Positions 1,348 to 54,456 of a DNA stretch of 64,000 nt are shown piece after piece. Position numbers and translations under genes: made by a program. This DNA is from Nemertoderma westbladi (taxonomy: Eukaryota > Animalia > Xenacoelomorpha), in the NCBI GenBank assembly GCA_032718475.1, contig JAUCBJ010007407.1:17060-81059 (forward strand), written 5' to 3'. The notes beneath the pieces were generated by a model. That model was given only the letters and a program-made list of their open reading frames with translations, ran no database searches and had not been told where the DNA came from. Position 1 is the stretch's first letter. Every line of letters begins with the position of its first letter.

Positions 1348-1385
1348 TACTCATCGGTCAAAACGCGCATGAAGCGCTCGAGACA

Positions 1386-15762: not shown

Positions 15763-16050
15763 ATATAAACTGCATAAGTTTAGAACAATATAAACTGCAT
15801 AAGTTTAGAACAATATAAACTGCATAAGTTTAGAACAATATAAACTGCATAAGTTTAGAACAATATAAACTCTTTAGGCATCTCAAATATAAAATATAAA
15901 TCTTTCAAATATAAATTCCTTCTAAATACAAAACTTTCTGAATTTCATAAAATCGGAACAATACAAATACATAAACTTGGGGCAATAATAAATTGCATAA
16001 ATTTAGAACAATATAAATTGCATAAATTTAGAGCAATATAAATTTTAAAC
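15763..16050. repeat. 25-bp tandem repeat TATAAACTGCATAAGTTTAGAACAA (about 4 near-perfect copies plus degenerate ones)
   Basis: Directly visible in the 3' UTR of C. Confidence 0.85.
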
Positions 16051-16134
16051 AATACAAATTACACAAACAATACATAAGACAAACAATTCATAAGAAAGGC
16101 TCACGAGTCTTCCGTCCACTCCTTCCTTCCCGCT

Positions 16135-24400: not shown

Positions 24401-24858
24401 GTGCCTCCGTAAATCAAAGTTAAGCGATCGTACGCTAATTCGAAGGCGTCTGGTACACCAACAAAGGTCTCTGCCAAACGTTTGGGTTCTCCCGATAATG
24501 TTTGAAGCAGGTAATTAAATTTCTCCCTTGATGTAAAGGCGCACACAGAGATCTGAGATTCAATATAGTCGACGAAAGTGTGCCAATGTTTGGAGCTACC
24601 GGAAAACTTAGGTGGTTGTTGCACCGGTAGTCCTTGTCTCGCTGCGAATTTAGCTATTTCCTCGGCAACGTTCAAAGTTTCGCGTCCTGGGTTGGCAATC
24701 TGGCTGGTGTTCTCTCTTCTAGGCGCTTTTCTTTGATACGATGTGTTTGTCGATGGTATTGGTCTTTGCGGAACTTTAGGATTTCTATTGTGTTCGAATT
24801 CGGAATTTCTCGAACTGTCGGTGTGAACTTCCTCCAAGCGTTCCTCTATCTGGGCCAA
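18448..24858 (-). CDS. pol: BEL/Pao gag C-terminal half, protease, RT, RNase H and integrase (2136 aa open)
   Basis: KFSGSSKHW, three Cys/His knuckles, protease AILDSAS, RT FYVDDG, RNase H FSDAS, integrase H-x3-...CIIC, GIDCFGP and SDQGTNF. Confidence 0.97.
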   Translation of the reverse strand: MAQIEERLEEVHTDSSRNSEFEHNRNPKVPQRPIPSTNTSYQRKAPRRENTSQIANPGRETLNVAEEIAKFAARQGLPVQQPPKFSGSSKHWHTFVDYIESQISVCAFTSREKFNYLLQTLSGEPKRLAETFVGVPDAFELAYDRLTLIYGGTVSMAKSVIEELCKGGAITKPVDLLKLTDEIKNAITTLRSIGQLEYGNTPTVLLKIIGRLHHRLRREWRKIEYQREERGGFLKLEDVYLLISREAVVETRSNYTDQHIVAEGISLPSHNRQKQLTTSTKTATYATPTETRQFSDGSKVSAPIGIKQTRQQLSADFSGCQYCEQLGKRHTGHKLRGCRLFRELNSEERRLQIRPLDSCWRCTQHGHVCKDCPNTDTCHLCGRNHDALLHTDSHTPTIRFTREHPEAAAKCNNAYKTRESRTTPTFVTHIWDCFPEQSGSSGEEYEDEDIYSDEDEQPLIALLTPDQLKGFSVIPVKITGTKGSKRIYAILDSASSHSYVDEKVADVVTDLRQGKHLKYTVSSMHGQRAIPVTRVKLNLDTLLPRSQHSEKERSLLPFKDLTFAATKDFSNLLGPVPEQSLEDRKYFRHLGVPECPVNYRSVAMLIGTDQFNLHQVWETRPSVVVAGNAYACRIPIGWYTRAPVRTLDISDEEDDVQSTCSLLTTTSIHSFSPDIDYTTLRSTKHDNVTGTTCVANTISHRKQPIHKVSIEREKKTSQAEVPSTTDDNAGRLASLSTPITLTMPVDIDVDTLRNCQVEQAALDKELTEKTIRWLEQDTAEPGSYEPCMSEQEKQSLKIMEDTIHQTKDGHYEVGMLWRSQSPKLINNYPLALRRLHSIRQRLLKDEKAHLQYNTQMETYLTKGYAIRMTNPEIVTDQTYYLPHHYVRHPDKPDKVRVVNDCAALFEGMSLNSDLMDGPNMNNYLMGVIMRFRQRQVAFTCDVEAMFHQVRALERDRDSLRFLWYPDGDLSQPPATYQMQVCVFGARDSPNCTMYALKQTARDQKHMYDPEVIRIVERDFYVDDGLQSCDTVESAITVAHQLRDCLAGGGFNLTKFASNSTELVNSFETTERGGGDIDLEFEPLPTTKVLGLFWDPNTDNFRVKVKLDAEGDSLTKRSCLSKLSRLFDPLGFISPIILQARIYMRSIWKDGLTWDEPISSEQVDLWKTWEAQLSSLEDYSIPRVYFPLQTTFPDNLELHCFSDASDNGFGVTAYLRRQVDSDEFDVSLITSKAKTMPTKYMTTPRAELQAATLSTTIVNLIQTELQSSLQIFYWTDATLVLFYINNDTLEFKTFVANRRAEILDRSIKEDWRHCPGPQNPADIASRGMMPEEFCKPENKKFWQHGPQFLQRATQHWPPLYDNKSNTIPKDAEIKKPKKGKAKKKTTAKLKKKPKAKWKNITHKVRAGRLASLSQPDVSPDGQPDMLPDVSPDGQPDVSPDGQPDMLLDGQPDTLLDGQPDTLLDGQPDILPDMSLDVSPDVPRNILPDISQDVLPDISNVATHSKAAVSLLEQPSIDKLPNLTPLSNHKYSETSCITDVGSTYANVNTGVTLRSRDIPTLQPTVRPGINIGTKINLPKPSDPIKLKPPLGIDAQSTDNQGKKTKKDKLLVDPDGSTVNKGILTGGLVGPSSKTKPSKFSIDLPDDVTNTYVDRIVNLTDSWTKACRKLAWIVRFVQYVKGKRDFTRRLTLTEIDRCEIKLIRHYQLRYFAREFTSISQGQPIKSSPILSWSPIIYNGLICHKSRLQNIDFNTDFRYPIIIPQHHELQRAMILDAHLHLKQAGRHHCLSYLRTRFVLIRPSKALSSVTRMCIICKKVHSRISTQEMSELPQARLQAFRPPFTETGIDCFGPIHTKRGHILVKRWGLIFTCMSSRAVHIERVMDLSTNAFILALWRFIARRGLVTCLYSDQGTNFVGARNEIARAFKKLDHDQISNELRPYKIVWKFNPPDSPWRGGVWERLIRSIKTAMAKVIPVNHILTDDQLTTLFVEIEAILNIRPIVLVPDDKQSQFALTPAHLLMQAPTTLTPISIPIEGDSYGRKAWKITQLLANKFWEIWQNHYLPSISARTTWYNKTRALRAGDHVLLAEVNLKRSFWITGVILDTHPSMDGVTRTVTVRTIDGRTVDRPTQRLVLLEET
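20385..20620 (-). repeat. 12/24-bp coding tandem repeat (PDVSPDGQ/PDTLLDGQ) in the RNase H-integrase linker
   Basis: Visible in both DNA and translation. Confidence 0.9.
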
Positions 24859-27132
24859 CTTGTTGACAACTGGTCTCAGAATGTCGGCAAATTGTTGGGT
24901 ACTGATCGCGTCCGTTGGTTGTAACGCCCTTTGTATTGGTGTATTTTGTGGAGGATTATCGATAAATTAATTATCTGAACGCTCATGTTTACATTCGTCG
25001 GCCGCTCCTGTTCTAAATACCTCGCATTCCGGGTAATCCGACTCGCTTGAAGTACTACTATCACCTGGATACAGTGGTCGACGTGCTCGTGTCCGTTGCG
25101 TCGTTCGAATTTTAACATTCCGCTTCGGAACATCGTCTACTGGTCTCCGTTGTTCGGTAGGCTCGCAGGTCTTCCTCGAAGTCGTAGATTGCGATGTAAA
25201 CTGGTTAAATGGTCGAGTATCCACTGGTCTCCGTTGTTCGGTAGGCTCGCAGGTCTTCCTCGAAGTCGTAGATTGCGATGTAAACTGGTTAAGCGGTCGC
25301 GTATCCACTGGTCTCCATTGTTCGGTAGGCTCACAGGTCTTCCTCGAAGTCGTAGATTGCGATGTAAACTGAATCGTTGGTCGCGTAATGGCGTTTGAGT
25401 CCAAAGTCCTCGTAGGTCTAAACACAGTTGGGTTTACGTTGTGCGTGACCGGTTTTGGTGTCGACGGTTGACTCACCTGTTTAGTCGTCATTAATGCAGG
25501 TCCGACTAATAAACTACTACGATCCGTTATTGGCGGATTACTTACCTTGACCTTTGGAATAGGCGATGATGTTACTCTCGGCGGTACAAATTTGTCCGGA
25601 ATAACATACCTGTGTTCCATCGCATCATGTATAGGAGATATACTGCCACTACCAGCAATCAAAACAGGTCTTTTATTCGTAATTGGTGCGAACATTGGAG
25701 TTACTTGCGGAAATCGTTGACATAAGTCTTTAACCAATTCCCATTCTCGCTCAGGTGCTCCTACGCTTCCTTCCTTCATTCGTTCCTGAATTTGACGGTG
25801 TCTTACCTCTAACTGGTCTAGATCGTGTCCGTCTCGAGATCTCATCGATCGATCGCGGGCTTGTAGATCCAGATCTTCCTTAGCGTTGGCTAATTCTCTC
25901 GCCTTCTTCTCGAGTTCGAAATGAAGTTTAACTTCCTTCTCGCGTTGTTCCGTCTGTTGTTGTTGCGCCTCGAACTCCGCTAGTCGTATAGCTGATTGAG
26001 CCTTTATTTGCCGTTTTTTCATTTCGGCTCTCGCTTCTGAAACTAGCCTTTGTCGCTCTAACTCGGCCGCTGCCGCCGCCGCCGCCGCTTGTCGCTCTAA
26101 CTCAGCCGCTGCTGCTGCCGCCGCTTGTTGTGCAATGTCCAACTCTAACTTTTCCATCTCGGCTGCTTCCAACTCGGCTTGTTCTTGCAGATGAGAGATT
26201 CTCGCAACATTTGCGACGCGTAGTTTCTCTTCCTCTACAGCTGCTTGTACCGTCAGCAGTTGAGTTTGTTCCTCAATTTCTCGTTGTTGTCTGTAGTACT
26301 GTTGTAGCTGTCGAGAAATTTCTGACGTCGCTATACTTACCTCGCCAATTTTGCTGCGAATACTCACTAATGATTGGTCCAGTATTCCCGGTGCCGGTTC
26401 GATTTGTACGGGTGAAGTTTCCCTCGTATATTCCGGCACGGTTTCCAAATCGCCGACGTCTTCGCCGCACATACGTAAGTGATCCGTCAGATGTTTCAAT
26501 TGTCCATCCAGTCGGTACAGTTCCTGTTCTTCCTCGGGCTGTAATAACTCGTCGGAAACCGACTCACCTAGCAACTGGTCCGCTTGTTCCTGTTGTATCT
26601 GTCTAACGGTCGTCTTAAACTGAATCAGTTTCTCCCTAGCGATCATTAATTTCTCGAGGATTCTAAACTGTGTGTCCATATCCGGTCTCTGTCTAGCTAG
26701 ATCTTGTAGACCAATTAGATTATCTACGGACTAATGTACTTTACTCTGTACTCTAACCTGGAGGGTGTAGAACTCAAACCGAGACATCGGAGCGGTCAAC
26801 TCGTCTAATATGCGTTGGCCTTCTCCAATACTCCTGGTAATATGCGCCATGTATCCTCCGACGCTTCTAACCACACTTTCCTGGCTTCCTACTGAACTTA
26901 CCATGTCCGTTTCTCTATGTCTAGGTTGCGGGACCGTTAGAAAATCCTCAGTCCTGCCGTCGCCTCGTACTACGGCATCCGGTACTCCCGTTGGATGTAC
27001 TGGTGACGCGCACGGAGTAGGTTCGGTAGGCTCATGAGTCTTCCCCTGTGGTTCTTCCGCTTCTGACTTATCCGTGTTACATGAGTCATAGTCGGTTTGT
27101 GTATTCTTCGTATAGTCTTATTTGTCACTCAT
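24859..27132 (-). pseudogene. gag: N-terminal gag extension of C (coiled coil, Ala-rich), in frame with pol but with three in-frame stops
   Basis: ATG at 27132 is in frame with 26679 and 24858. Stops are TAA (codon 5), TAG (~26732) and TAA (24967-24969). Confidence 0.8.
25137..25372 (-). repeat. 84-bp coding tandem repeat, ~3 copies (QFTSQSTTSRKTCEPTEQ.RPVD)
   Basis: Directly visible. Confidence 0.9.
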
Positions 27133-27929
27133 TTCGGTAGTTGTAAGTCAAGTAAAGTGAGTGTCAAAGTATCAAACTTACCGTATTTATATCAAAACGG
27201 TATTAATTACAGTCATATAAAATTAGCCTACCGGCCGATTTTATAGCAGATGGATAAAATTAGCCAAGCGGCCAATTTTACAGCAAATAAATGTCACGGA
27301 ATAAGTATATAATAAAATTAGCCTAGCGGCCAATTTTATAACAAATAAATCGGATAACGATATACGTTATCAAAAGGTAGATTAAATACAATAATACGGA
27401 CTAATTCAGCAATAAACAAAGAAATCGTACGGAATGCATAAATACTTGAGACAGTGGAACCCACAATAATTTTAACTAATACGGTAATGCCTAACTGATT
27501 TATGCAACTTTTCGAACTCACCCCCTCCAATGATTCTCCAGAAAAACAGATTCCCAGATACAAACCGGACGTGAACCTTTCCGTTTCCAGCGTTGCGGAC
27601 GAAGTGCGATTTTCCCAACCAAAGTTGTTGAGTTATCTATCTCCCAAACTTGCTAAACACGGTCTTGCTCTCGTTACAGTCTAGAAATGAGCTCTGAATC
27701 CTGAAAAACAAAAGAGTTAGGTTTTACTTTACAAAAATTTTGTACCGGTACAATATGGTATTTAAACCCTTTTTGAACACCGGTATTCAATTCCAAATAT
27801 TTTACACGCGGTTCAAATCAAAATTTTTATTTCAAAATATTAGCACTTAGCTTATCAAATATAAACTTTTACCTCAAAATACAAAATTTTCAAATAACTT
27901 TAGTCCTACCGAACCGTAGTTCAGTAAAA

Positions 27930-27940
27930 CATATTCCTAC
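27930..27940 (-). other. Non-tRNA primer-binding site of C (GTAGGAATATG), complementary to LTR 28967-28977
   Basis: Flush with the 5' LTR end; exact 11-nt inverted match in the LTR. Confidence 0.8.
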
Positions 27941-29823
27941 TATGCGAAGAGACAGTAACAAAATACCCTGCAATATCCTACTGTAAAGTTTGTGAATCAA
28001 ATCATAAATCCGACCTTCTCACCAAAACAATAAACTCTAAGTAAGCGAATATATATATTGCAGTATTTTGTCTCTTATAACCGGTGAGGCAGAAAACAGT
28101 CTACGAACGGACAAACTTCGATAAAACAAAATCCCGCGCAGCGAATCCTAAAATTAGGCTGACTCACTGACGGACTAAGGGCGCTCGTATACCTTGCCGC
28201 GGTGTGATTTATATGGTTGGGATAGAGAAATGCTAGCTAGGTGCAGAGATGTCTAACTAGCGGGCAAAGCGCAGTACAGACAAAAGTTAATTTTATATAT
28301 TTTGAGGTGTAAATAATTTCTAACGCGCGTGTGTCTTGATTCTAAACAGTCAAAGTCAGTTTTGCTCCTTCACATATATAATTACTGGGTCCGGTGTGCA
28401 TTTTACAAATATTCTAATTTTGTAACTTGTAGGTCCAATACTCACGAATGATAAGGCTCCTTCCCCTTTCGTGTATTTCCAGGACTCAAATTCAGGCATA
28501 AGGTTAATACTACGCCCAGAATTCGGCAATTTAATTTACCAGGTCCCTAATACTAAGAAGAAATGTGTTAGTTTACTACAGTAGGCGTACAGTTACTAAT
28601 AGCTAGCCTGGTTTTCTTATCTAGAATTTTGGTTGCCTAGATGAGCAGGGCAACTTCCTAACAGAATGTTGGCGGGGACACGGTAGATGTTAGTATCCCT
28701 AATAGCCTCAATTTATTTTGCGCCTAGTTGTAAACTGCCCTACCGCCTGAATGGTACAATCCTAATTCAGGTAAAACACAGTAACCCTTCTGGCCTACAA
28801 GTTCTAATGCAATGGACACCGTTGTACTACAAACAGTCGCCGACGCACCTATACTTAGCAAGAGTTAGGCGTACAGTTTGCTGCACCCTACCAATGTGTA
28901 TGCCTTGTACCGGTGTGCCTGCGTCCTATCTGTGTACTAGAATCTCTGCCTGATCTCCTCTCCCCCGTAGGAATATGAAGGTCTACTGCGGGTTTTTCTC
29001 TGAATTAAGACAGTACGGTCCCTAGATGTAATTTTTTAGCGCACAGCGTGTCACTACCTCTACCTTCGATCTTTGGTCTTACACTTAGGTAGCAAGGCAT
29101 TGAACGCTGTCTAACCTTCAGGCGATGGGCGAATAACTCAAGAATGATATTGCGGGTTGTCTCCTCCTACATTCCTCAGATGTTCCCGTTCATTGCTGGG
29201 GTCCGATGTTTAGCCTGCCATCCTGTCCCTTAGTTGGGTTCACCGTGGTGAAGCATAGTAAAACAGATAGGAAAAGGGCAGATGTAACAAGTATTTCTAA
29301 CTTTTATTACAGAATTAAACAATAACTATTATACAATAAATGTAACAAGAGTGAAGATAGATAGATAGAAAGAGATAACTAATGAACGAAATCGCACCTT
29401 TTATAGCAAATTTGTGCTGCAATCAATCGAGAAAATTCTCGATTGTTCTATGAGTTCTAATAGGTTTTTAAAGATAACTATTGGTCCAGCCAATATATAA
29501 CTTGCACGACATTGGTTACTATCTAATAACTGCAATCCCATTGGTTAATCTACTTCGAGCAAATGCAATTTAATGCGGTTAATTTAAATGAGTTGAAACT
29601 CTGCACAAAAAATAATTCGCACCTACAAGGATTCGAACTCAATACCTACTACATATAATTTCCAACGCTTTACCGACTGAGCTACTGAACCACTTGAATA
29701 ATCATCGTACAAATAGATATAGTAAATACAAATGAGGACTTAATGTAGTCTTTTATAGCAAAGTTAATTCGAACAAAATAAAATTTTGAAAATCCACGGC
29801 ATTTATGAGAATATAATTCTATA
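27941..29823 (-). repeat. 5' LTR of element C
   Basis: About 13 substitutions and one 5-bp indel relative to the 3' LTR (counted by eye). Confidence 0.95.
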
Positions 29824-36700: not shown

Positions 36701-37060
36701 TGCATGGAATGAGCCTGCAGTGGAAATCTAAAACGTCTCGCAGGAGGTTTTGTGTTACAAGTCAGTCATGGATGGATCAAAACGACTTCGTAACCTTCCT
36801 ACAAGCAGTTGTTTGTCTGTACCACGGAATAGGCCTTGATAGTCAACATTTTCAACGTTTATAGTACACATGTGGAGCATAGTATATATTACTTACATAC
36901 TGTAATATATGGCACGCAACGTGCCGACTACGTGATGTTTGTGCATAATTCACTGCCTAATACTGTCACAAACTTCCTTTTAACACGATGTTTCGCACTG
37001 TTATAAATGCAGCATTTCCTCTTTCATAAAACTTGTCATTTTCATTAAATGTCCCTTGAT

Positions 37061-38829
37061 CGGTAATGGTGAAAAATATCGAGACTTGAAAAATATCGAG
37101 AGTAAAAATAACGAGAGTAAAAATATCGAGAGTAAAAATAACGAGAGTAAAAATAACGAGAGTAAAAATATCGAGAGTAAAAATAACGAGTGGGAAAATT
37201 AACGTGATTAAAAAATATCGAGAGTAAAAATAACACAAGATGAAAAATATCGAAAATAACGAGTGTTGAAAAATATCGAGTGTTGAAAAATATCGAGAGT
37301 AAAAATATCGAGTGTTGAAAAATATCGAGTGTTGAAAAATATCGAGTGTTGAAAAATATCGAGTGTTGAAAAATATCGAGTGTTGAAAAATATCGAGTGT
37401 TGAAAAATATCGAGTGTTGAAAAATATCGAGAGTAAAAATATCAAGAGTAAAAATATCGAGAGTAAAAATAACGAGTGTTGAAAATTAACGTGATTAAAA
37501 AATATCGAGAGTAAAAATAACACGAGATGAAAAATATCGAAAATAACGAGTGTTGAAAAATATCGGTGTTGAAAATATCGAGTGTTGAAAAATATCGAGT
37601 GTTGAAAAATATCGAGAGTAAAAATATCGAGTCTTGAAAAATATCGAGTGTTGAAAAATATCGAGAGTAAAAATATCGAGTGTTGAAAAATATCGAGTGT
37701 TGAAAAATATCGAGAGTAAAAATATCGAGAGTAAAAATATCGAGTGTTGAAAAATATCGAGAGTAAAAATATCGAGTGTTGAAAAATATCGAGAGTAAAA
37801 ATAACGAGTGTTGAAAATATCGAGTGTTGAAAAATATCGAGTGTTGAAAATATCGAGTGTTGAAAATATCGAGTGTTGAAAAATATCGAGTGTTGAAAAA
37901 TATCGAGAGTACAAATATTTCATTTTGCTTGAGCATTTTATTTAGAATTATGGAACAATATTGCAGTGCATGGGTTACAACAGTGCAAGTGCAAGTGAAT
38001 GGCATTATGTAATACACCTTGGGTACCCATTTACCAGATTTATTATACTAGCTAGTTTTTGCTATTTTTTTAATAAATATTATAAAAGAAGTGCTAGCTA
38101 TAAATTTTGATAAATATTCTTAAATATTATATTAGAACACGTATAAGCTACCAAATTTCGATAAATTTTTAGTAAAAACATTATTAGTAAAAAAAATTAT
38201 CATACAACCCTTATTTTAAAAAATTGTTACTATCGATATTTTTACTCTCGATATTTTTCAACATTCTATATTTTTTTCAACACTCGATATTTTTACTCTC
38301 GATATTTTTCAACACTCGATATTTTTCAACACTCGATATTTTTCAACACTCGATATTTTTCAACACTCGATATTTTTCAACACTCGATATTTTTACTCTC
38401 GATATTTTTCAACACTCGATATTTTTACTCTCGATATTTTTCAACACTCGATATTTTTACTCTCGATATTTTTCAACACTCGATATTTTTACTCTCGATA
38501 TTTTTCAACACTCGATATTTTTACTCTCGATATTTTTCAACACTCGATATTTTTACTCTCGATATTATTCAACACTCGATATTTTTACTCTCGATATTTT
38601 TCAACACTCGATATTTTTACTCTCGATATTTTTCAACACTCGATATTTTTACTCTCGATATTTTTCAACACTCGATATTTTTACTCTCGATATTTTTACC
38701 CTCGATATTTTTACTCTCAATATTTTTTGAACTCTCGATATTATCGTTATTTTTCAACACTCGATGTTTTTACTCGCGTTATTTTTACTCTCGATATTTT
38801 TCATGTCTCGATATTTTTCAATATAACCG
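37061..38829. repeat. Foldback-like inverted arrays of 16/18-bp units (AAAAATATCGAGAGT / AAAAATATCGAGTGTTG) around a ~310-bp spacer
   Basis: The left arm 37061-37910 and right arm 38232-38829 are inverted, with ends CGGT...ACCG. No TSD found. Confidence 0.85.
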
Positions 38830-39494
38830 TCTGTATGTACATCTACATCTGATTATACCAGTTGCCGGCGCCGTCGGTCGTACAAATACACAGTCTTGAA
38901 TTAACATATTTAACCGTTAACAAGAGCAGAAACCGTAAACGAAGAAATTCATTTTCTTTTGTCGCTGACACGTGTCAGGAGCGTAGAAATGCGGTATAGT
39001 GCTGTCGTAGTTCAGTACCGTACCGGTAGTTCTGTAGCTGGCAGTTCAGCAGTTGCTACCAGTCCGGTTATACTTCTACAGTCTGACAGTAGTCAGGTAG
39101 TAGGGCGGTACGGCGGGCGGTGCCAACAGACCCTCTAATCTAATTCAGGACCGCAGTCCAACAGTCCGGAGTCCGCACTGCATGGCTAATTAGGGCCTAC
39201 AGAATTAGGCCTGTCCTGTAGTACAAGTATACGTGATCTATAATGACTGAACCGGTACCGCGGTACTAGTCAGCCAGTACCGTAAAACACCGAATACAGT
39301 ATGGCTGTATGGTATTGCAGTATTGCTGTATTGGATGATTACAGGATTCCTGATTCAGGGATTGACATTGAGTATAGTACCGGTTAAGGCAGACAGGCCA
39401 CAATGGCATTACTGTAATTTCCCAGCTGATTTAGTCTCCTAGCAACCTGTTGATGTCAAGCGTAATAATTTTGGATAAATAAATTTATTATAAC

Positions 39495-42068: not shown

Positions 42069-42430
42069 GGCTCATTCCATGAAAAGGTCAACCTCCCCAC
42101 TAATTTCGAAAAATGAGATGTAGCTTTGAATTTATACTTATTTTAGGTCAAAATTTATCGTACTTCATGAATTCAGTGCTAAAAATTGTATCAACGCAGG
42201 TGGTTTCTCAATAATAGTCGAATTACAAATTATGCACCTGCTCTGCACAAAATGTGAATAAAAGTGTGCAAAAGTTTCGTTTCCTGTAGGCACTTCCTAT
42301 GACCAATAAATTAACATTTCTGAGCATGTACCAAATCAAAAACAAACCCATTTTCGAATTTTTTTGGTTTCCTTTAATTTCACCAGTGTTTCAATCCTCT
42401 ATAATGAAATCGATAAAGTTAATCATGTGA
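42069..42430. mobile_element. DNA-transposon-like end GGCTCATTCCATG (inverted copy of the motif at ~36703-36715)
   Basis: Begins where MITE homology stops; the 13-bp motif recurs. Confidence 0.35.
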
Positions 42431-43648
42431 TGTTCGCGCTTTTGAAGACCTTTAGCAGTTTAACCTGCCAAAATTTATATGTCTTCTAGTTAATTAAAAC
42501 CACTTTAGCATACGACAATATTTTATGCTAATACGCAAAACATTAACCGAAGTCAGCCCATGCGCGATCATTCACCCGATGGATCTACACCCGGGAGACT
42601 GAATTCGGATCCTTGAATTGTATTATTACAGTGTAAGGTTGCAGTGTAAACTTACTGTATTATTCGATAGATCGTTAATAATTAATCTCTGACAGATATT
42701 ATTGGCTTTCGGGAAATATTAACAGTTCCTTTAGGACGTGGCGCTTTATCTATTTAAACAGAACTAAGACTTATACTAAAACGCAACGATACTGCTTATG
42801 ATTAAAGTATAAAGCGTATTCTTTAGGAAATACTTTGTTACCAATCTCAATCATACACACTATTCTGCCGACAGTCAGTATATTTGATCACACATAAAGA
42901 GAGCAGTAATTGACTCACGTAGGGTCTGCTAAATAACATTGGATTCAATACACACCACATTAATATAAATCGCAATTGTTATGTATAGCCGGTCTCTCTA
43001 ACCTGTAGTGTTATCAAGAAAATTGGGAATTGGGTGATTTATCCGTATTATCCAAATAGCAATATTTCCATCAACAAAATAAGTACAATTAATAACTGAC
43101 GGTAAAATAACAGTACAAACAATATGATTAGTTAAATTGATCGGTAGTTAGGTAACAGTTTATACTTTCGATAATTCAAGCAGTTTACGGTACAGCAGTA
43201 TCTATCCAAAATGCCGGTGTTTCTGGCTTAGACAGCAATAACAACAAAGTATCAAGTAAGGCAGTAAGACTGAACACTCTCCTTATGATCGACTAAAAGC
43301 TACACGTCGACAGGAAAAATCGCTCTGATTGGCTCAAGCCAAACAAAGAACCGTGCGTCCAATGGCTGTTTCCATGTCAGCAACCAGCTGTTAGATGTCG
43401 TAATATGAATTATCACGGCTAAACTGTGAAAGGTAGTTGGTGCATGGCAGGTTTTTTGCCTTACCATGTCCACTAAAACACGTATATAGCAGAATTACTC
43501 TTATGTCCGTTAAAACACCTGTAAAGGTACCTTGCGGGCGAGGGGAATATATCTACAGTTAGAAAACCTTTTAGAGTATTCCAGCGCCTGTGGGGAAACT
43601 GGATTGCGAAGCAAAAGGGGCCAGTTATATCCCACAGAAGCTTTTACA
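42431..43648 (-). repeat. 3' LTR of element D
   Basis: Direct repeat of 53234-54451; PPT at 43649-43666. Confidence 0.95.
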
Positions 43649-43726
43649 CCGCTCCCAGAAAATGGGATTTAAGTCTATAAAATATACAAAATCACAGTTT
43701 CTAAAATATAAAAATACTCTAAACAG

Positions 43727-45174
43727 TTAGTCTTTCTTGCGCGGACGGCGTTTACGCAGTTTTTTAAAGCTAGCAAGAGTCCTTTTCTCTTTGGGGCGAG
43801 CCACTTTACTAGGAGGGCTATAACTCCTGGGTGAAGGGTGCAATATGATTGCATCAGAAGGTATGGGATTGCGATCGGTATATCCGCCGGTCGAAGTACC
43901 GGGTTGATTGACATCAACGTCCGGGGAGAGGGGTCTAACGGCTTTGAGAGCTCGTTTCAAGACAGCCGCTCTTACGGGTCCTTTACGAGTGGTCTGAACG
44001 AGGGCCGTGGGTGGACCATAGGCAGTTAGAAACTTCCTTGGTTTAATGGTTCTTTCCAACTCGCGTTCGCGGGCTCTGTACTCGTAAGGCCGTCGATATA
44101 CTTCCTGTAACTCAGGGTGTGAGTTGACAAATAAGTCTCCATAGGCCGGATCTTAACGGATAAAGTTTATTAAGTTATACGAATTGATGTCACTCGGATT
44201 AATGCTCCTGAGGAATTTGCGTACATATTTGGTTGAAATACATTCTCCAACGCACTTCAATAGTTCATAACTTGATATGCATGATTTCTGTTCAACCGAA
44301 GCGAATAGATAAGGATGTAACGCATAAACTCCTTCGTAAGCGCGTCCGGGATAATAGCGATGGCGCGAATCACAATATAAATCAGTGTTCGCTTCCCAAG
44401 CTCTGATGTAACGTAGTGTGATCATTTCATCTACGCTTTCCAAATCGTGATTAAAAGGGCAATCGAAACTGGCATGTCCCTTTAGTTGACAATGGTGACA
44501 TTGAGTCATAAATTGAGGGCAAACCGCAAAATGTGCAAATTATTAAATCTGCAATACGCGCAATAAATTTCCATCGCCGGTTGTTCGTGGAAATAAGAAC
44601 AGCGGACGTTTGTGTCCATGGGCGTAACATGGTCTCTCGATGCGCATAATCGACAACGTTGCCGAGAAACATAGTTGGCATGGCGATAATCGTACGCAGT
44701 GAGACACTGTGGACTTTGATACCATTCTAGGATGTAATCGTTGTCGCTGTTCCGAGCGCGATAGGCTGAATCTCCTCAGATTCTAGACATATTGGTTCGT
44801 CTTCCCAGTCTGTTACGAATGGAATTTTCGTGATCTATTCTCGGTTTATCGTTACGACGCCGCTGGGTATGATATTTAAATAGAACCATTTCCCTTTCGG
44901 TGTCTACATCGTCCGTATAATGTAAATCGATAGGATGGCCAGTAGTTAAGAAGTCCATATACGTACCATTACGATTCGTATAGCGAGCGGTGAATTTTCT
45001 ATAGTCCAATTCACGCGTAAGTTGTTCCTGGGACATCGGCGGTTCGATATAACGACCATCGTCCTTCGTAATAGTCGGATCGGCTTCACCGCGTATCAAG
45101 CTATCCACAAACGCTTGTAAAGGTAGAGTATATCGCTCCCTGATACCAAGGTCCTCTTCTATCAATTCCGTCAT
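43727..45174 (-). pseudogene. 3' accessory ORF of element D (disrupted), with CCHC knuckle and basic tail
   Basis: LIICTFCG and FMTQCHHCQLKGHASFDC align with the C accessory protein; the N- and C-termini match A. Confidence 0.75.
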
Positions 45175-46779
45175 ATCTGTTATCTGAGTTTATTAATATC
45201 AATATAAGTTAATATTTTAGGCAAACGGGCGTCGCTGCCTACTAGGCTTTTGCCCCCGGACAGTGGGTTTCTCAGCGCCGATATACCGCTGTCGCAGTGT
45301 TTGCGCCAACATGTAGCAACAGCACGACAACGATAATCGACACAAGTCCCACCACTGTCCGTCCCAAAGGCTTGATTCCACTTGAGGTTATCTCGGTAGA
45401 GTTAGGGCTACTTTACAATTGCGATTAGCTACTGTAAACACACTTTAGTAGTAACATTCACCTATAAACGCACAAATTCCATACAATCATTACTTATTGC
45501 ACACATGCATGCCATTTGTCCGTTAGTCAGTGTCTTCCAGAATGTCACGTTATTACTATGTATCCTTGGATACTAATAGTGCGCTATGTATACTCTTATG
45601 CTACGCAATGGGGCAAGCTTTTATTGGTCCTTTAACTTGTTTCTAATTCTAGCGTGGGTGTTGCCATGGTGACATTATGGAAAACTAGCGGTAGAATTAG
45701 GGCAATCCTCAGGCATACAGATCTGGGATGTTATTTAATAGTAATTCTTTAATTGTCAATATCCTCTTTATGCATGATTTTATAAATTTTATCGGCTATT
45801 GACTATATGTTGGAGATTCTCACACTCTAGTACACTCAATATGAATCTCCGCTCCCATGATCTATTAATTACTGGAATTTTGGGAATGTTATAAATTGTA
45901 CAAAATGACAATTTATGAAATTCATTTGAATATGAATTTAAATTTATTCCCGTGAATTTTATTATTTGATGTTAAATTGACATAAATTTTATTCCAGAGC
46001 ATATCTGGGGACTTAGGATCCTTAATTCTATAAAATAGTCCTTCTAAGAATATCGGTAAATACTGCGATATCTTAATTGACTAGAAATTTTAAAGGATCG
46101 GGATTTTACAGATTTTAATAAATATTAAATTAATATTTAGGATGGGCACCGATTTATTCCAGAACTTGTCTGGGGACGTTAACCACTGATTCTAGAATTT
46201 GTCTTTCAAGTATATCGGTGGGTGCCGCGATATCTTAATCGACTAGAATTACAGATGGTCAAAAGGTTTAACAGCTTTATTTGCGTTTTACGCTACTGTT
46301 AGAGGGACATCACGCTACTATATGTATTATTTGTTATAAGGTAGAAGAGCAATATCGCACGAAGCAATGTCAGTGTGAAGAGGCAAGTCGTTTCCAAGGT
46401 CTACCCAGAGCTTGGTTTAGCCGAGACACGAGGATCTGAACTTTGCATTCCTAATACTCTGCCTACCAATAATACTTAAATATAGTAGTGGCTTTATTGT
46501 ACTTTAAGAAGTACTGACATGTCATCTTACTATAGTCTCGCATTTATAATATAATACGGACAGTAAGGAAAGAGAAAAATAATTATTTCTTGCCGTCGCA
46601 CTAAATATATTATAAGTAATTAAGTACGTAATAAACACTAATATATTGCACTAATTTACTAAATAATCGCTAAAATAACATTCTACTAAATAAAATTAAA
46701 GAAAACGATTATAATAAAATTACATATAAAATAAAAACAAATATAAAATGATATAGTCACACACCCACTCCATATGTTA

Positions 46780-49700
46780 TTATGTTATGGAGTCCCTAGA
46801 TATTTGTCGGATTAGGGAAGTGGTCGTAGGAAGAGTATCTTGCCTTCCATAGTTTCCGGACAGTTTTTGGTCTCTTTCCAGTAAACATAAACGACCAGCT
46901 GGGTGATTGGGTTGTCGTGTTACTTTCTCCGCTCCCTTGGCCTGTCTACTCTCCGCCGTGGTAAGATGAGGAGGCCATTCATCTTCTTCTTTACTTAGGG
47001 AGTCGGGTCCACCTAACCAGCCGGGAGTATCTATCCGTTCTTGAGGAGTCGCTCCTCTGGAAGCGATGTCGGCTAGATTAATCATCTCGGGGCGATGTCT
47101 CCATTGATCTTCATTGGAGTTAATATCGTCATTATCTGAGGAGTATGGTGTTCCCTCAGTTAGTTCGTCCACTTCACTGCTCTCCACTTCCAAACCATTT
47201 ATCTGGTATAGTCTTTCTGATGGTAGTCTCTCTTCGAGAGTTCTGCGGGAAGGACCAGTAAAGTACCAACCTACTCTAGTTCTTACCGCATAGGTTTGTA
47301 GTGGCTGCGGTTGAGCAGGTCGTTTTTCCAATGTCTCGAGCGCCTCGTGCGCGTTTTGGCCGATAAGTATTTGCACTCCAGGATAATCTGTCTGGAATCG
47401 AGGTATCTTAAGATGTTGGATGCTCTCATCCTCGTCCCAATTATAAAGGTCTGCTTGGGTAGTAGCGAAGTTCTTTATAGCCACCATTTTTACTGACCTT
47501 ATACTTTGTGCTCCTAATTTATCCTGGGGGGTGGACAACGCACCTACATAGTAATCTGCCGTTATGGTAGATTTCCAAACCTGCATAATTCCGGACATAT
47601 TCAACTTAGTTTGGAATTTGGGTTGTCCAGCAAAGATATCTTCGGCTAGTTCTTGATCGATGAATGTTCCTGTGCTGCCGGAGTCAAGGAGTGCGTTCAC
47701 TATGTAACTTTTGTTGGGACCGTGAACTCTTACCTGCACTACAGGAAATTCTCTGATTCCTACATTGGAAGTTGGAGTTTTCCAAGATGGTGGTTTGTCA
47801 AAAGTAGTTGGGGGAAACTCATTGGTGGTGTCTTTTTCGTAAGTAAGTGCTCGATACACTGCGGTATTTATTAGGTAACAGGATTCGTTGGCATCGGAGA
47901 ATTCGTCCGTATAGAATCCTTCCCACTCAGAACTTTGGTCAGTGTCGTTCACATCACTGAATTGGACATGTGATTTGGGCTCACTTACCTGACTCGGGCT
48001 GTTTCGTTCGAATTCCGTGTGTAACAAGCTATGATGTTTCGCGCCGCACTTAGCACACCTTGCGTCAGAGTAACAGGTTCGCCGCTGGTGTCCGCGTCTG
48101 AGACAGTTATAACATAACCGCTTATCCCACAGGACTCCACGTCTATCTGCCATGGATTTCTTTAGGAATTCTGCACACGCACTCAAACGGTGGGGCCCGT
48201 CGCACAGCGCACATTTTGGTTTGATGTTACTCACCTTAACTTGGTTAACGTTCTGCACTCTCGTTCTTTCTTCGGGCTTTCTTCCGTGAATTCTCTTAGG
48301 AGACATAGGAGGAGTTGTTGTTACCTGTTCTCTCCTGTCACTGGTTCGAGACTTGTATTTACTTACGTCTTTATAGGTCTTGTTGTCATAGTAAGATTTT
48401 GCTGTGTCTTTCCCGCTGTCCTCTTCTTGAGAAGCTTGGCTTTCGCCGTCGTCAGTATAACACACTGGTATTATCCTTCTCCTAGAAACGGGTTTCTCAC
48501 TTACCTTATTTTCCGATGTTTTCTCTCTGGACTGCCTTATGAGTTGTAATTTTACTTCACTATCTAAGAAGGACATGAGATCAGCCATGGTAGGGCTTCG
48601 GCGTTGTTGTTCATTCATGTACAACACTTTCTTGTCCCAGCGCGTACATACTCCACCCTTTGGTAAAGTAGAGACTACGGCTCCAATGACCATGGAACTC
48701 TGATATTCATGCGACTTACCTAACCAGTCCAGTTGTCTACAGATCTCTTGAATTTCATCTGAAAACTCTATAATCCCGCTACTAAGGAAGTGTCTGGGGG
48801 CTACTAATTTTGCATACAAATACTTAGCTATGTTATCCTTGTTACCATACCTGATGTTTAATGTATCCCAAACTTGTCTTAATCCATCTGGATGTCCAAT
48901 AAACTTTAACGCCATTAACTTGGGAGGTCCTTCCAAGCACTTGATGAGGAATCTAAGTTTCTCTCCGTTAGATAGTACAGAGTTCTGTATGCTATCTTTG
49001 TAATATTCGTTGAAAGGTAACCATTTCATCTCATCTCCATTGAATTTGACGATCTCTCCCACTTTGACCGCTTGGCGGGCTTCTGTTCTAGCCATCTGAC
49101 GCGTAAAGCTTTCTTGGGCCATCGTGTTATTTAATATCGAATTATCGGTATATAAATTTATCGGATCATTATCAGGTCTATAGGGAATATCATTAATAAC
49201 AGGTCTATAATCACCCTTAATAGGGTTTGCTATAGGAGTTTCAACTTCACTAGCACTATAGATGCGTGTAGGCTCCACACCTTGCGCATGTAATACTTCA
49301 GACCTAACAGGTTGACACAATGTTACAGGGGGTATTGGTATGCCCTTTTGTATATTGACTAATTTATCGCGTTCTAGTGCGATACTTTGCTGCACTTCTT
49401 GCAACTCTGCTCTACCTTCCCTCACTGTTCCCTTAAGTTGGTGGACAGTCTCCTGCATCTGTCCTAGCAGAAGATTCATCCCCCGCCGTCCCTCTTCCAC
49501 CCACTCAACCGCCGAAGCGGGAGTCGCCAACATAGTAGCGGGCTGACGCGGGACGACGGGAGACAAATTATTGATTTCTCTCTCTGCTATCTGGACAGGG
49601 GTATTTGCATGGACTGTTCCACCGGGTACAGGCAGTGTAGTACTATGTAAAGGGAATTTAGAGTTAAGCTCTGGAAGTACAGGGGTCTCTAACACAGAAG

Positions 49701-50961
49701 TGACTTTGGGAACGACAGGCCTAATTATTTCAGGCTCATCTACTATAGTAGGGAGTCTATTTACGGTAATAATTTGGTCTGTGGGTTCTGTACTACTTAA
49801 ATCTGTGCTAGCTATTTGTCGTCTAACAGCGGGGGGCAAATCGGGCAATTTATGACGGTGAGATGTCTTTCTACGCCTACTGAGACGAGATCTATTTCCT
49901 CTGCCTTCAGGATCGGTGGTCTCGCCTTCCTCCGATGATGTGTATCCTTGGCGTTTGGGAGTAGATCGACTCATCATCTGCATTTGATTAGCAGTAAACT
50001 GTTTATTTATACTGTCTTGTGTCTCTTGCAGATTTTCCAACTCCAGTTGGGTAGTCTGCTCAGCGGCTCTCCGTTCTGCTTCGGCCACTGCCCTTTCCGC
50101 CTTTGCTTCTGCCGCCGCTGCCTTTCTTTTTGCTTCTGCTTCTGCCGCTGCTGCCCTTCCTTTTGCTTCTGCTTCTGCCGCTGCTGCCCTTGCTGCTATT
50201 CTTTCTGCTTCTGCTTCTGCCATAGCCGCCGTTTTTTGTTCCTCTATCCTTCTTTTCTTTATTTGTTCTTCTCGGACTCTAACGAGGCGGAGTTTTTCAT
50301 CACATTCAGCTTGGTTTGCAGCTAACATTTCGGCATCGATGGCGTCCAACACAAGCTTGGTTCCTTCACTATTAGGGGGAAGTCCAGACAGCCGTCTCCT
50401 CAACTCTTCGTCTCCTAGGAATCGCTGATAGTCGGACAAATAAATGTCGATAGCGTCTCTAGTTCGCGGCTTCTCTGCTGATGTTAATTCGCTTTCCACT
50501 TCGCTTTCCACCTCGCTTTCCACTTCGCTTTCCACTTCGCTTTCCACTTGAGGAGAAGCAGCGTCGGTTGATTCTTCAAAGGTTGGTCGCTCATCATAAA
50601 CCGTATCTGCCATCTTCGCTCCGCGTTCGGGTCTCCGCTCAGCAGTATCCGAACAACTGGAGCCATCGGGCCGCTGAGAACTAGGTTCTGGGCTAGGAGG
50701 TTGCTGCTGTTTTATAGCTTCTTCTTGATCCCGCTTGACTTGGGCCCGAGTGCCTATGGCAGACCAACGGCGCTTCACTAACTTCGCAAATTGCGAAATC
50801 TTTTCTACCAACCTAGGTTCTGACACAACCACTGCAGGGGTTGCCCTTCTTACAGTATGAGGGGTTTCAGACCTCGGTCTGGGATTCTCTACACTTTGAT
50901 CTGAGAAACAGGCTGTTGTTTCTAGGAGACTATCTGACAGAGTTTGCCTTGTGTCAGCCAT
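46780..50961 (-). CDS. gag: BEL gag-protease fused in frame to short RNase H-end and integrase-end remnants (1393 aa)
   Basis: KFNGDEMKW, knuckles CALCDGPH, CYNCLRRGH and CAKCGAKHHSLLH, protease ALLDSGS. RT and the integrase core are absent relative to A. Confidence 0.93.
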   Translation of the reverse strand: MADTRQTLSDSLLETTACFSDQSVENPRPRSETPHTVRRATPAVVVSEPRLVEKISQFAKLVKRRWSAIGTRAQVKRDQEEAIKQQQPPSPEPSSQRPDGSSCSDTAERRPERGAKMADTVYDERPTFEESTDAASPQVESEVESEVESEVESEVESELTSAEKPRTRDAIDIYLSDYQRFLGDEELRRRLSGLPPNSEGTKLVLDAIDAEMLAANQAECDEKLRLVRVREEQIKKRRIEEQKTAAMAEAEAERIAARAAAAEAEAKGRAAAAEAEAKRKAAAAEAKAERAVAEAERRAAEQTTQLELENLQETQDSINKQFTANQMQMMSRSTPKRQGYTSSEEGETTDPEGRGNRSRLSRRRKTSHRHKLPDLPPAVRRQIASTDLSSTEPTDQIITVNRLPTIVDEPEIIRPVVPKVTSVLETPVLPELNSKFPLHSTTLPVPGGTVHANTPVQIAEREINNLSPVVPRQPATMLATPASAVEWVEEGRRGMNLLLGQMQETVHQLKGTVREGRAELQEVQQSIALERDKLVNIQKGIPIPPVTLCQPVRSEVLHAQGVEPTRIYSASEVETPIANPIKGDYRPVINDIPYRPDNDPINLYTDNSILNNTMAQESFTRQMARTEARQAVKVGEIVKFNGDEMKWLPFNEYYKDSIQNSVLSNGEKLRFLIKCLEGPPKLMALKFIGHPDGLRQVWDTLNIRYGNKDNIAKYLYAKLVAPRHFLSSGIIEFSDEIQEICRQLDWLGKSHEYQSSMVIGAVVSTLPKGGVCTRWDKKVLYMNEQQRRSPTMADLMSFLDSEVKLQLIRQSREKTSENKVSEKPVSRRRIIPVCYTDDGESQASQEEDSGKDTAKSYYDNKTYKDVSKYKSRTSDRREQVTTTPPMSPKRIHGRKPEERTRVQNVNQVKVSNIKPKCALCDGPHRLSACAEFLKKSMADRRGVLWDKRLCYNCLRRGHQRRTCYSDARCAKCGAKHHSLLHTEFERNSPSQVSEPKSHVQFSDVNDTDQSSEWEGFYTDEFSDANESCYLINTAVYRALTYEKDTTNEFPPTTFDKPPSWKTPTSNVGIREFPVVQVRVHGPNKSYIVNALLDSGSTGTFIDQELAEDIFAGQPKFQTKLNMSGIMQVWKSTITADYYVGALSTPQDKLGAQSIRSVKMVAIKNFATTQADLYNWDEDESIQHLKIPRFQTDYPGVQILIGQNAHEALETLEKRPAQPQPLQTYAVRTRVGWYFTGPSRRTLEERLPSERLYQINGLEVESSEVDELTEGTPYSSDNDDINSNEDQWRHRPEMINLADIASRGATPQERIDTPGWLGGPDSLSKEEDEWPPHLTTAESRQAKGAEKVTRQPNHPAGRLCLLERDQKLSGNYGRQDTLPTTTSLIRQISRDSIT

Positions 50962-52329
50962 GTTTGATTGTACAGTCGAATGCCTACTGCTATATTACAG
51001 TTAAAGCAAGTCTAGTAATTCAGTATCACTGTTAGCCTAATAATTAATTACCGATACTGCTACTCAGTGTAGCGTGATATATATATAATATATTAGAATA
51101 CCGGTATGCTTATAATATATATATAAGTATTATTACAGACTAGATTTGTCACAGAGTACCGGTATATAATTTTAGCACAAATATATATAAATATATAATA
51201 GGCCTATCGTGAATACCGGTATACAGCTGACACTTATAGTATATATAAGTATAATTATTACTAGAATTAATTACAGAATACCGGTATGATTTCAGCTCAA
51301 ATTTATAGAAATAAATATAATAAGCCTATGGTAAATACCGGTATGTCAATTATTTTAGAATAATTGAATTTCTGAATATTTTAGGGTTACTTGGTTACTT
51401 TAACTTACTTTATTACCGTTATTTAAGCAGCAGTCCAACTGATATTGAGACCTAGTTGTTGTATGGCAGGCCTACTATTTATAAATCGTTTGAGTTGATT
51501 TATAATACTTATATACCCGTTTAAATGGGTTTTTTGTCAATATTTGAAATAAATGTTATTATTTCTGGGGGAATCACTACACAGAAGCTGTGCGCTGTCA
51601 GTGAAGTGTTACTTATTGAGACACTAAAACTGATAATTCTAATTTACCTAAGTTACTTAATACTACAAATTACTTACGATACGGGTGAGATTAATTCTCT
51701 AATTAAACACAACAAAAATATTACGTACAAAATTTTTAGGGTAATTTTACAGGAAGTCTACAAACCAGCCTAACAAAGGGTTAGATTTCTGGCTATTACA
51801 AAGGACAGGGTACTACGGTATTTAAATAATAAGTAGTAGTAAATATATTGTACTGTCCAGATAGGAAAATACCACCGCCTGACGACCTATAACCGTATCG
51901 CTATAGGTACTACGTTATGTATCACGGATTGTTCCTACCCAGAGGCTAATAGAGCTAACGAATGTGCCTATCAACCACTTTACAACACAGATATACTGCC
52001 TACACTAATTACTTCGGATAGCACTGTACACTAAACCCTAAATTAGGTACAAGTACCGGTATAACAAATAATCAGTAGTTAAATATACTTGAACAGTTAA
52101 AAGAACCACGGCATCTGCTGGAGTGACCGAAGCACAAAGTCGTCAGTCTTTACCTACGCCAAGCAGCCCTGATGTAGTACCGGGGTTAGTTTAACTATAA
52201 CGGTATGTATAACAAGCACAATTACTGTAGGAATAAACTTGGGGACATGAATGTTGCGAATAATCGCATAAACTCTGAATAATAAATATTACGCTACCCG
52301 TACAGAATACTCAAACAAATACAAACCAA

Positions 52330-52850
52330 ACGCTGGTAGACTACTATCAAGCCTAAACAAACTACAGTATGTGCAGATTCTGAAACTGTTAGTTAGTATG
52401 CGTGCTAACACGGTAGTACGACTTACTCTTTAAGAGGGGATTGTCCTTACAGCATATGGCTGCCCCAACTTACTAACTGCACTTGATCAGACCAACTCTA
52501 CACACGCAGCAATCCCTTCAGACCTAAAAATAGCTAGACAACAATCCAGCCTACAAATATTTGAGTAATAACTATTACGGTACCTGAACAGACCACACAA
52601 ACAAACTCAGGCTAAAACACTGGCAGACTACGATCAAGCCTAGATAAACTACAGTATATGCAGACTCTGAAACTGTTAGTTAGTATGCGTTCTAACACGG
52701 TAGTACGACTTATTCTTTAAGAGGGGATTGACCTTCAGCATATGGCTGCCCCAACTTACTAACGGCACTTTATCAGACAAACTCTACACACGCCGTAATC
52801 TCTCCAAACTCAACAACAGTCAGACAGCAGCCCAGCCTACAATTATCTGA
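52330..52850. repeat. ~290-bp tandem duplication in the leader of D
   Basis: CTGG(T/C)AGACTAC...CCAGCCTACAA occurs twice. Confidence 0.8.
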
Positions 52851-53221
52851 ACAATCTGAGCAGGGTCACACGCCTTCTGCTCAATATTAGCCTACTAGTA
52901 AATAAAACTGACAGAAATAGACCTAAGTAAAATCCCAATAAAAAACCAGGCGTCCCCGATTTAATATCGAGACCTACCGGTATACAATAATCAAAATCGA
53001 ATAATACTAAATGTACTTGTACAGCAGTACCGGTACCGGTGATGACAGTTAGGCCTACTGACCTACAGAAGCACCGGTTCAGTTTTACCAGTCACTACGG
53101 TATTTTGCAACCTTATTGCCTACTGCAATAAGATTGTAAACTGTTACTGTTCGACAGAACAGTATTAAACTGTATTTAATGCCTACACTTGCAACCTTAT
53201 TGCCTACTGCAATAAGATTAA

Positions 53222-53233
53222 ATAAACTGTTAC
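53222..53233 (-). other. Non-tRNA primer-binding site of D (GTAACAGTTTAT), complementary to LTR 53955-53966
   Basis: Flush with the 5' LTR end; exact 12-nt inverted match in the LTR. Confidence 0.8.
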
Positions 53234-54451
53234 TGTTCGCGCTTTTGAAGACCTTTAGCAGTTTAACCTGCCAAAATTTATATGTCTTTTAGTTAATTAA
53301 CACACCTTTAGCATACGACAATATTTTATGCTAATAAACAAAACATTAGCCGAAGCCAGCCCATGCGCGATCATTCACCCGATGGATCTACACCCGGGAG
53401 GCTGAATTCGGATGCTTAGATTTTATTATTGCAGTGTAAGGTTGCAGTGTAAACCTATTGTATTATTCGATAGATCACTAATATGTAATTTCTGACAGAT
53501 ATTATTAACTTTCGGGAAATATTAACAGTTCCTTTAGGACGTGGCGCTCTATCTATTTAAACAGAGCTAAGACTTATACTAAAACGCAACGATACTGCTT
53601 ATGATTAAAGTATAAAGCGTATTCTTTAGGAAATACTTTGTTACCAATCTCAATCATACACACTATTCTGCCGACAGTCAGTATATTTGATCACACATAA
53701 AGAGAGCAGTAATTGACTCACGTAGGGTCTGCTAAATAACATTGGATTCAATACACACCACATTAATATAAATCGCAATTGTTATGTATAGCCGGTCTCT
53801 CTAACCTGTAGTGTTATCAAGAAAATTGGGAATTGGGTGATTTATCCGTATTATCCAAATAGCAATATTTCCATCAACAAAATAAGTACAATTAATAACT
53901 GACGGTAAAATAACAGTACAAACAATATGATTAGTTAAATTGATCGGTAGTTAGGTAACAGTTTATACTTTCAATAATTCAAGCAGTTTACGGTACAGCA
54001 GTATCTATCCAAAATGCCGGTGTTTCTGGCTTAGACAGCAATAACAACAAAGTATCAAGTAAGGCAGTAAGACTGAACACTCTCCTTATGATCGACTAAA
54101 AGCTACACGTCGACAGGAAAAATCGCTCTGATTGGCTCAAGCCAAACAAAGAACCGTGCGTCCAATGGCTGTTTCCATGTCAGCAACCAGCTGTTAGATG
54201 TCGTAATATGAATTATCACGGCTAAACTGTGAAAGGTAGTTGGTGCATGGCAGGTTTTTTGCCTTACCATGTCCACTAAAACACGTATATAGCAGAATTA
54301 CTCTTATGTCCGTTAAAACACCTGTAAAGGTACCTTGCGGGCGAGGGGAATATATCTACAGTTAGAAAACCTTTTAGAGTATTCCAGCGCCTGTGGGGAA
54401 ACTGGATTGCGAAGCAAAAGGGGCCAGTTATATCCCACAGAAGCTTTTACA
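53234..54451 (-). repeat. 5' LTR of element D
   Basis: Direct repeat of 42431-43648. Confidence 0.95.
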
Positions 54452-54456
54452 TGTGA

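Follow-up and report, generated by a model that had tools for sequence, protein, structure and literature searches.

Within the 64-kb stretch of Nemertoderma westbladi DNA analyzed here (the window), two BEL/Pao retrotransposons, C and D, each carry a PBS that is complementary to a segment of their own LTRs, and in most related families a partner of the same kind is found only across a predicted GT-AG intron of the LTR. By analogy with Tf1, the best reading is that these elements would be self-primed and that their primer site is usually built by splicing, C and D representing the intron-less state. Element-encoded priming overall appears highly likely, and we lean slightly toward its cis form in D and C, in which the PBS would pair with a segment of the element's own LTR and the element's own transcript would prime reverse transcription. 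The splicing, cutting, and priming of the element RNA are steps that we infer from sequence. The pairing in D is part of a widespread signature, and the wider result is the apparently splice-split partner in the relatives.

Element D (42431-54451, minus strand) is a non-autonomous BEL/Pao element whose two LTRs of 1218 nt (5' LTR, 53234-54451; 3' LTR, 42431-43648; both minus) are 97.9% alike and have TG...CA ends. The 5-bp TSD TCACA occurs on both flanks (54452-54456 and 42426-42430), so the end of the LTR is fixed without recourse to the pairing hypothesis. As an earlier note on this DNA had claimed, with coordinates that all hold on re-reading, the 12 nt flush with the 5' LTR (53233-53222, minus strand) are the exact reverse complement of LTR positions 486-497. 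This segment, which contains the predicted 3' end of the primer, is present in both LTRs (53955-53966 and 43152-43163, both minus), and the match ends at nt 13. Separately, the leader of D contains a tandem duplication (53060-53246, minus) that carries a second LTR-end-like sequence and a second copy of the PBS, an 11-nt match 86 nt downstream (53137-53147, minus). Differences between the two LTRs of D are clustered, with 25 of 26 inside LTR positions 886-1163 and a single one in positions 1-885, a pattern attributable to gene conversion or to two-template strand transfer.

The single open reading frame of D (46780-50994, minus; 1404 amino acids [aa]) encodes Gag (DUF1759) and protease. Three separate parts of the Pol of element A, the third element discussed here, align to the end of this frame, indicating that, relative to A, RT, most of RNase H, and integrase were deleted in D, which is therefore non-autonomous. 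The polypurine tract of D (43649-43656, minus) is flush with the 3' LTR, and its GGAGCGG end is common to D, A, and C. An extra open frame between pol and the 3' LTR occurs in C (16135-17097, minus) and A (7009-7470, plus) and has a homologue in D (44800-45189), each without a Pfam match. The window also contains a minisatellite of 15/17 nt in two inverted arrays (36966-38899).

Element C (13365-29823, minus strand) is a coding element flanked by the TSD GTTAA, which fixes its LTR ends as TA...TA rather than TG...CA (5' LTR, 27941-29823, 1883 nt; 3' LTR, 13365-15252; both minus). Its coding region (18448-26730, minus) consists of a 587-aa frame, one stop, and a 2172-aa Gag-Pol frame with Pfam matches to DUF1759, Peptidase_A17, and DUF5641. 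The 11 nt flush with the LTR (PBS, 27930-27940, minus) match LTR positions 847-857 (28967-28977, minus; 3' LTR copy at 14391-14401), and the best TATA candidate, at LTR position 419 (29405), lies 428 nt upstream of this segment. A donor-like motif at LTR position 1379, downstream of the primer segment, is conserved in F, another LTR of the window. In the U3 of both C LTRs there is a tRNA-like stretch with an A-box-like motif, a B-box-like motif, and a T run (29609-29695 and 15038-15124, minus), at which neither ARAGORN nor Rfam made a call.

Both PBSs begin with GTA, not TGG, and judged by the missing TGG start neither element has a tRNA-type PBS. The LTRs of D and C, as the earlier note maintained, lack colinear similarity (best blastn hit, E 6.7). 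The 12-nt match in D was reached by only 5 of 20,000 dinucleotide shuffles of the LTR and the match in C by 9 of 20,000, and only 3 of 9,555 interior start positions in D have a 12-nt match to the LTR, the PBS itself among them. That the matches arose by chance in AT-rich LTRs, or that the D segment is a mere TATA box, is hardly credible: the segment does overlap a TATAAA at LTR position 485, but the homologous site in A has no TATAAA, and the same pairing recurs among the relatives (23 of 26 families). Taken together, the shuffle results and these relatives refute this explanation. The observation is real, and D is confirmed as a second, intron-less case of PBS-LTR complementarity.

In the predicted fold of the D leader, the duplex of PBS and segment lies within the best structure, and its probability varies with the assumed start of the RNA (0.96, 0.29, and 0.03 with 0, 40, and 100 nt added upstream); in C, the probability stays at 0.99. 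A splice junction that would lengthen the pairing was looked for in D, C, and F, and none was found. Searches of the 64-kb window with ARAGORN and Rfam returned no tRNA or ribozyme, leaving a self-cleaving ribozyme without support. At a lowered threshold, ARAGORN made 39 noise calls in the window, none at the tRNA-like stretch of C.

The remaining LTRs of the window bear on what the earlier note had predicted for A. In the 3' LTR of A (8461-9626, plus), which has 72% identity to the LTR of D over its 3' 740 nt, the segment homologous to the complementary segment of D (8905-8915, plus) reads ATATCTGTTAT and does fall on the site in D, with a 2-column gap in the MAFFT alignment. What is left of A's pol (1346-5393, plus) runs from the end of protease to integrase, its 5' part being absent from the window. 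Upstream lies F, the 3' part of a third, C-like LTR (1-1293, plus; ends CATA; blastn against the C LTR, E 4e-11), followed by a leader of 52 nt that begins with GTA and extends to the start of pol at 1346. The 5' part of A is here truncated or chimeric, with the F LTR fused at 1346 to the protease region. The earlier note had placed the PBS of A outside the window. Since A's pol joins a C-like LTR and leader at 1346, its 5' LTR and PBS are not simply next upstream; the PBS may be lost or may lie beyond the C-like LTR. Against self-priming, F itself pairs over only 8 nt: the leader flush with it (1294-1301) has its complement at 430-437, a weak match reached by 239 of 5,000 shuffles.

As a proxy for the PBS of A, contigs of four runs were aligned on the LTR-PBS junction of D. 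In three runs, PBS position 1 was A instead of G at 23%, 12%, and 35% of depth, a change absent from the fourth run that fits A because A's segment ends in T; moreover, the T run was one base shorter in all four (3 to 11% of depth). The inner T-to-A change predicted from A's segment stayed below the 2% threshold in all four runs. The predicted sequence of A's PBS was thus borne out in two of its changes but not in the third, a partial outcome, given that contig depth is no measure of copy number and the variants are unphased with A. Within the PBS of D, no substitution reached 2% at 53222-53232 (11 of the 12 places) in the four runs, and indels set in at the PBS edge, partly owing to the duplicated leader. 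One contig of run X4, aligned at 53230-53272, has a loose end that resembles the sense LTR immediately upstream of the primer segment and that is linked, at the edge of D's PBS, to the end of the antisense LTR; this single case could represent a retained primer or a nested insertion.

Relatives were sought among metagenome contigs, where 524 related stretches were confirmed and the best 80 of the 524 were used, and among genome contigs, which added 7 loci; the resulting 87 related loci form 47 families. No relatives were found in viral contigs. Before testing, 21 of the 47 families were left out because the contig, judged by eye, was short of the LTR or PBS, and one record per family was tested for 24 families with LTR and PBS on one contig and for two added later (26 in all). 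Five of the BEL/Pao elements (L081, L082, L084, L085, and L086; four with both LTRs) come from records titled as bacterial metagenome-assembled genomes, most likely because DNA of animal hosts is present in the bins.

Under a strict test (exact pairs, PBS offset of 0 to 5, and consensus donors and acceptors), 16 of the 24 families pair over at least 10 nt (10 to 15 nt), 14 across a predicted intron of 66 to 1022 nt and 2 contiguously (L060 and L085). These matches occur in 9 of the 16 families whose LTR end was set by two copies and in 7 of the 8 whose end was judged, and each was reached by at most 3 of 300 PBS shuffles passed through the same junction set. L036 and L064 join them when the splice filter is relaxed and one G-U pair is allowed. 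Five further families pair in post hoc checks: that of L043 over 10 nt in three additional copies (the first copy is changed at the exon end), L053 over 14 nt after correction of its LTR end, the new families L070 and L034 over 14 and 16 nt, and L041 weakly over 10 nt. The total comes to 23 of 26 families that pair over at least 10 nt, 7 of the 23 by relaxed or post hoc handling; such counts overstate independence, because the families are kin and one PBS core is common to six of them. The misses are L068 (8 nt) and L074 and L018 (no pairing), L074 being kept as a miss with an uncertain LTR end.

For 21 of the 23 pairing families, the partner is complete only when a predicted GT-AG intron is removed from the LTR; in the other 2 it is contiguous, as in C and D. 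The interpretation in the earlier note is partly supported. Its view that pairing rather than letters is conserved holds far beyond the window, but it had missed that the partner is mostly split by a predicted intron.

Several controls bear on the splice-split matches. In a test blind to splicing, an AG directly adjoins the longest uninterrupted match in 19 of 24 LTRs, compared with an expected 3.7, although 3 of the 19 (L053, L018, and L064) are at the wrong site by inspection. When 26 LTRs (the 24 relatives, C, and D) were crossed with 26 PBSs under a loose splice filter, the element's own PBS ranked first in 14 of 26 rows. In the rows of L006, L012, and L081, the only PBSs to rank higher came from sister families and had the same core; the rows of C, L014, and L082 each lost to at least one unrelated PBS, C and L082 having the two longest LTRs; and the six families that failed in the cross-matrix run rank lower. 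The sister families L081 and L084 differ in the last three letters of exon 1 (CAC and TAA), and the three matching PBS letters differ in step (GTG and TTA). The spliced duplexes have energies of -8.7 to -18.7 kcal/mol, compared with +1.5 to -8.2 for exon 2 alone, such that splicing lowers the duplex energy by 4 to 15 kcal/mol.

This dependence of each PBS on its own LTR also bears on the idea that the primer is an internal tRNA fragment or some other small host RNA, of which the LTR segment would be a copied relic. Half-tRNA priming is known in copia lineages, according to the available sections of two reports (PMC6317226, PMC10886601). A host RNA would hold the letters of the PBS fixed, and is disfavored because these letters vary freely by family, following each family's own LTR; nor would a relic be split by GT-AG introns with pyrimidine tracts. 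We regard such a primer as very improbable.

The position of the duplex is informative about its function. A PPT flush with the LTR is accompanied by a flush PBS match in 6 of 7 cases (C and D included), and where an A-ending spacer separates PPT and LTR, the match is offset by 1 to 5 nt in 17 of 17 (Fisher P = 5e-5, ignoring kinship; tallied by hand, with L054, L068, L074, and L018 left out). Such agreement would be expected if the end of the duplex marked the end of the cDNA, and the spacing is a hint that the duplex end may be the priming point. An unlikely alternative is that the helix is real but serves packaging, dimerization, or the sensing of splicing while a host RNA nearby primes. 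Sequence alone cannot show priming, and the offset of the PBS from the LTR end does range from 0 to 5 nt across families; however, that offset follows the PPT spacer, the duplex occupies the exact place required of a primer, and only 1 of 26 related PBS regions starts with TGG, itself pairing over 14 nt with its own junction.

By protein descent, C and D are filed as BEL/Pao, and it is their priming mode that departs from the ICTV profile. Pfam finds DUF1759, Peptidase_A17, Integrase_H2C2, and DUF5641 in A and C and DUF1759 in D; the Gag/Pol domains are of the Pao type, in the order PR-RT-RH-IN, and the elements have direct LTRs, a PPT, and a TSD. The best of 1,639 homologues are 38 to 44% identical with the same domains, those that are named coming from molluscs, corals, sea urchins, and a ribbon worm. 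Over RT-RNase H, the identity between A and C is 45%, and a quick, unrooted tree built without reference elements or an outgroup unites the two in a clade with support of 99. The contiguous partner occurs in C, D, L060 (the nearest row to C and A), and L085, the last of which sits among intron-bearing families (support of 99 in the same quick, unrooted tree), and the simpler reading of this unrooted tree would be that the intron has been lost at least twice.

We propose that the transcript would start within the 5' LTR, either at the segment or upstream of it, and that in most families a GT-AG intron splitting the segment would be spliced from the 5' leader, creating a partner of 10 to 16 nt that C, D, and two relatives carry already joined. 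The partner would fold onto the PBS, and the RNase H of the RT, acting as it does in Tf1, would cleave immediately 3' of the duplex, so that the new 3'-OH would coincide with the LTR end or lie 1 to 5 nt from it. The stretch from the cut to the poly(A) site would then serve as R for the first strand jump. D, which has no RT, would be copied by an A-type helper. TATA candidates lie 36 to 428 nt upstream of the partner (36 nt in L067 and over 200 nt in L082, L084, and C), so the primer could be something other than the 5'-terminal 11 nt of the RNA. In 15 of 20 LTRs, poly(A)-like hexamers follow the site.

Inheritance of the intron requires an unspliced source: either the 3' copy is left unspliced, as cis priming would entail, or a spliced short transcript primes an unspliced genome in trans. 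In the cis scheme, the intron would be passed on by a 3' LTR that stays unspliced, and intron-less lineages such as C and D would arise when that LTR is occasionally spliced. This scheme expects some intron-less copies, but no intron-less DNA copy was seen in any of 16 intron-bearing families (1 to 6 copies sampled in each), and a terminal intron beside a poly(A) signal would have to escape splicing at the 3' end. In the trans scheme, a spliced short transcript, running from start site to poly(A) site within one LTR or a solo LTR, would anneal to the PBS of the unspliced genomic RNA, be cut, and prime, the intron shielding the copies that the genome itself carries from pairing and cleavage. 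Such trans priming, a possible but distinctly less probable arrangement, accounts for the retention of the intron in 21 of 23 families along with the absence of intron-less copies, and is in keeping with poly(A)-like signals that come soon after the acceptor (9 nt in both L081 and L084) and with weak predicted cis folding in L081, L084, L054, and L067. The contiguous site in both LTRs of C, D, L060, and L085 speaks against it, as do the strong cis folding predicted for C and for 7 of 13 spliced leaders and the fact that Tf1 primes in cis, as stated in the part of the report available (PMC7175516). In these 13 folded leaders, a set that excludes L008, L012, and L013, the pairing probability exceeds 0.9 in those 7 and is near 0 in L081 and L084.

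These data suggest that the BEL/Pao elements of animals probably include a large and old branch whose tRNA primer has given way to one that the host spliceosome assembles from two halves of the LTR, with C and D as escapees by intron loss. If this is true, splicing would license reverse transcription in the branch with the splice-built primer; the RNA would be spliced at one LTR copy only, or a spliced mini-transcript would act in trans; and C and D, at the intron-less end of the series and both in one 64-kb window, would have lost the intron, at least two times independently in the tree, and would prime without splicing. Retrotransposition would be tied to host splicing, the elements would presumably be freed from silencing by tRNA fragments, and tRNA-based PBS filters would miss BEL/Pao elements with a self-made primer. 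The PBS also provides a rule for predicting LTR introns.

Priming in BEL/Pao elements has so far been assumed, not measured, and the present data make it directly testable. They suggest that self-priming extends to a third superfamily and that a primer may take the form of an exon-exon junction. The BEL-group element Cer7 of Caenorhabditis elegans has reportedly been proposed to encode its own, tRNA-like RNA primer, which would differ from the spliced LTR junction predicted here; that proposal may lower the novelty of an element-encoded primer in BEL/Pao. We found no report of self-priming or of a splice-built primer in BEL/Pao in the literature searched, which covered few subscription papers and no supplements. 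The words "PBS," "primer," and "tRNA" are absent from the available main text of two BEL/Pao surveys (PMC3118150, PMC6238403), as are "PBS" and "tRNA" from the available part of the Sinbad paper (PMC554778); the sections at hand of five other papers have no bearing on BEL/Pao priming (PMC13524379, PMC8220671, PMC4558846, PMC5445492, PMC10886601). Supplementary PBS tables (PMC6317226, PMC6238403, PMC3118150) and entries in Repbase and GyDB could bear on novelty.

According to the ICTV profile of the Belpaoviridae, replication is primed by a host tRNA, tRNA-Arg or tRNA-Gly, for which the PBS measures 18 nt, and is on the whole poorly understood (PMC8742986). The elements resemble this family in the Gag-PR-RT-RH-IN order, Pao-type Pfam domains, LTRs, PPT, and 5-bp TSD, but the 18-nt PBS is absent from C and D, there is no TGG start in C, D, or 25 of 26 related families, and the 1.9-kb LTR of C exceeds the stated range of 0.2 to 1.2 kb (PMC8742986). 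Outside BEL/Pao, self-priming has been named, in the sections available, for Tf1, Tf2, Tj1, sushi, Tcn1, and the plant TAR copia elements (PMC7175516, PMC4600332, PMC6317226, PMC3601003). In the TAR lineage of plant Ty1/copia (Houba, Osr-1), it was likewise predicted from PBS-LTR complementarity, but these are copia elements of plants, and the portion available describes no intron-split partner (PMC6317226). The fungal GalEa copia elements also lack a tRNA PBS and have a self-complementary element at the PBS position; as far as the available text goes, the hairpin sequence is conserved there, whereas here the partner is in the LTR and its letters vary by family (PMC5445492). The tRNA-like U3 stretch of C, a coding element, recalls the tRNA-derived LTR pieces of Helenus described in the accessible part of that report (PMC10886601).

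The closest parallels are Tf1 and Tf2 of Schizosaccharomyces pombe, Tj1 of S. japonicus, the Tf1/sushi group, and Tcn1, in which, to judge from the available sections, a PBS of about 11 nt pairs with the element's own LTR RNA without a tRNA and the RNase H cut of Tf1 falls between bases 11 and 12 (PMC7175516, PMC4600332). D and C share with this group a PBS complementary to an LTR segment and the lack of a TGG-type tRNA start. The Tf1/sushi group belongs to Ty3/gypsy, however, and the Pao-type domains of C and D are not those of chromovirus ancestry; as BEL/Pao elements, they are not members and at most work alike. Compared with Tf1, the BEL/Pao partner seemingly does not in every case coincide with the 5'-terminal 11 nt of the transcript, given TATA candidates 36 to more than 400 nt upstream, and in most BEL/Pao relatives it is split by a predicted intron.
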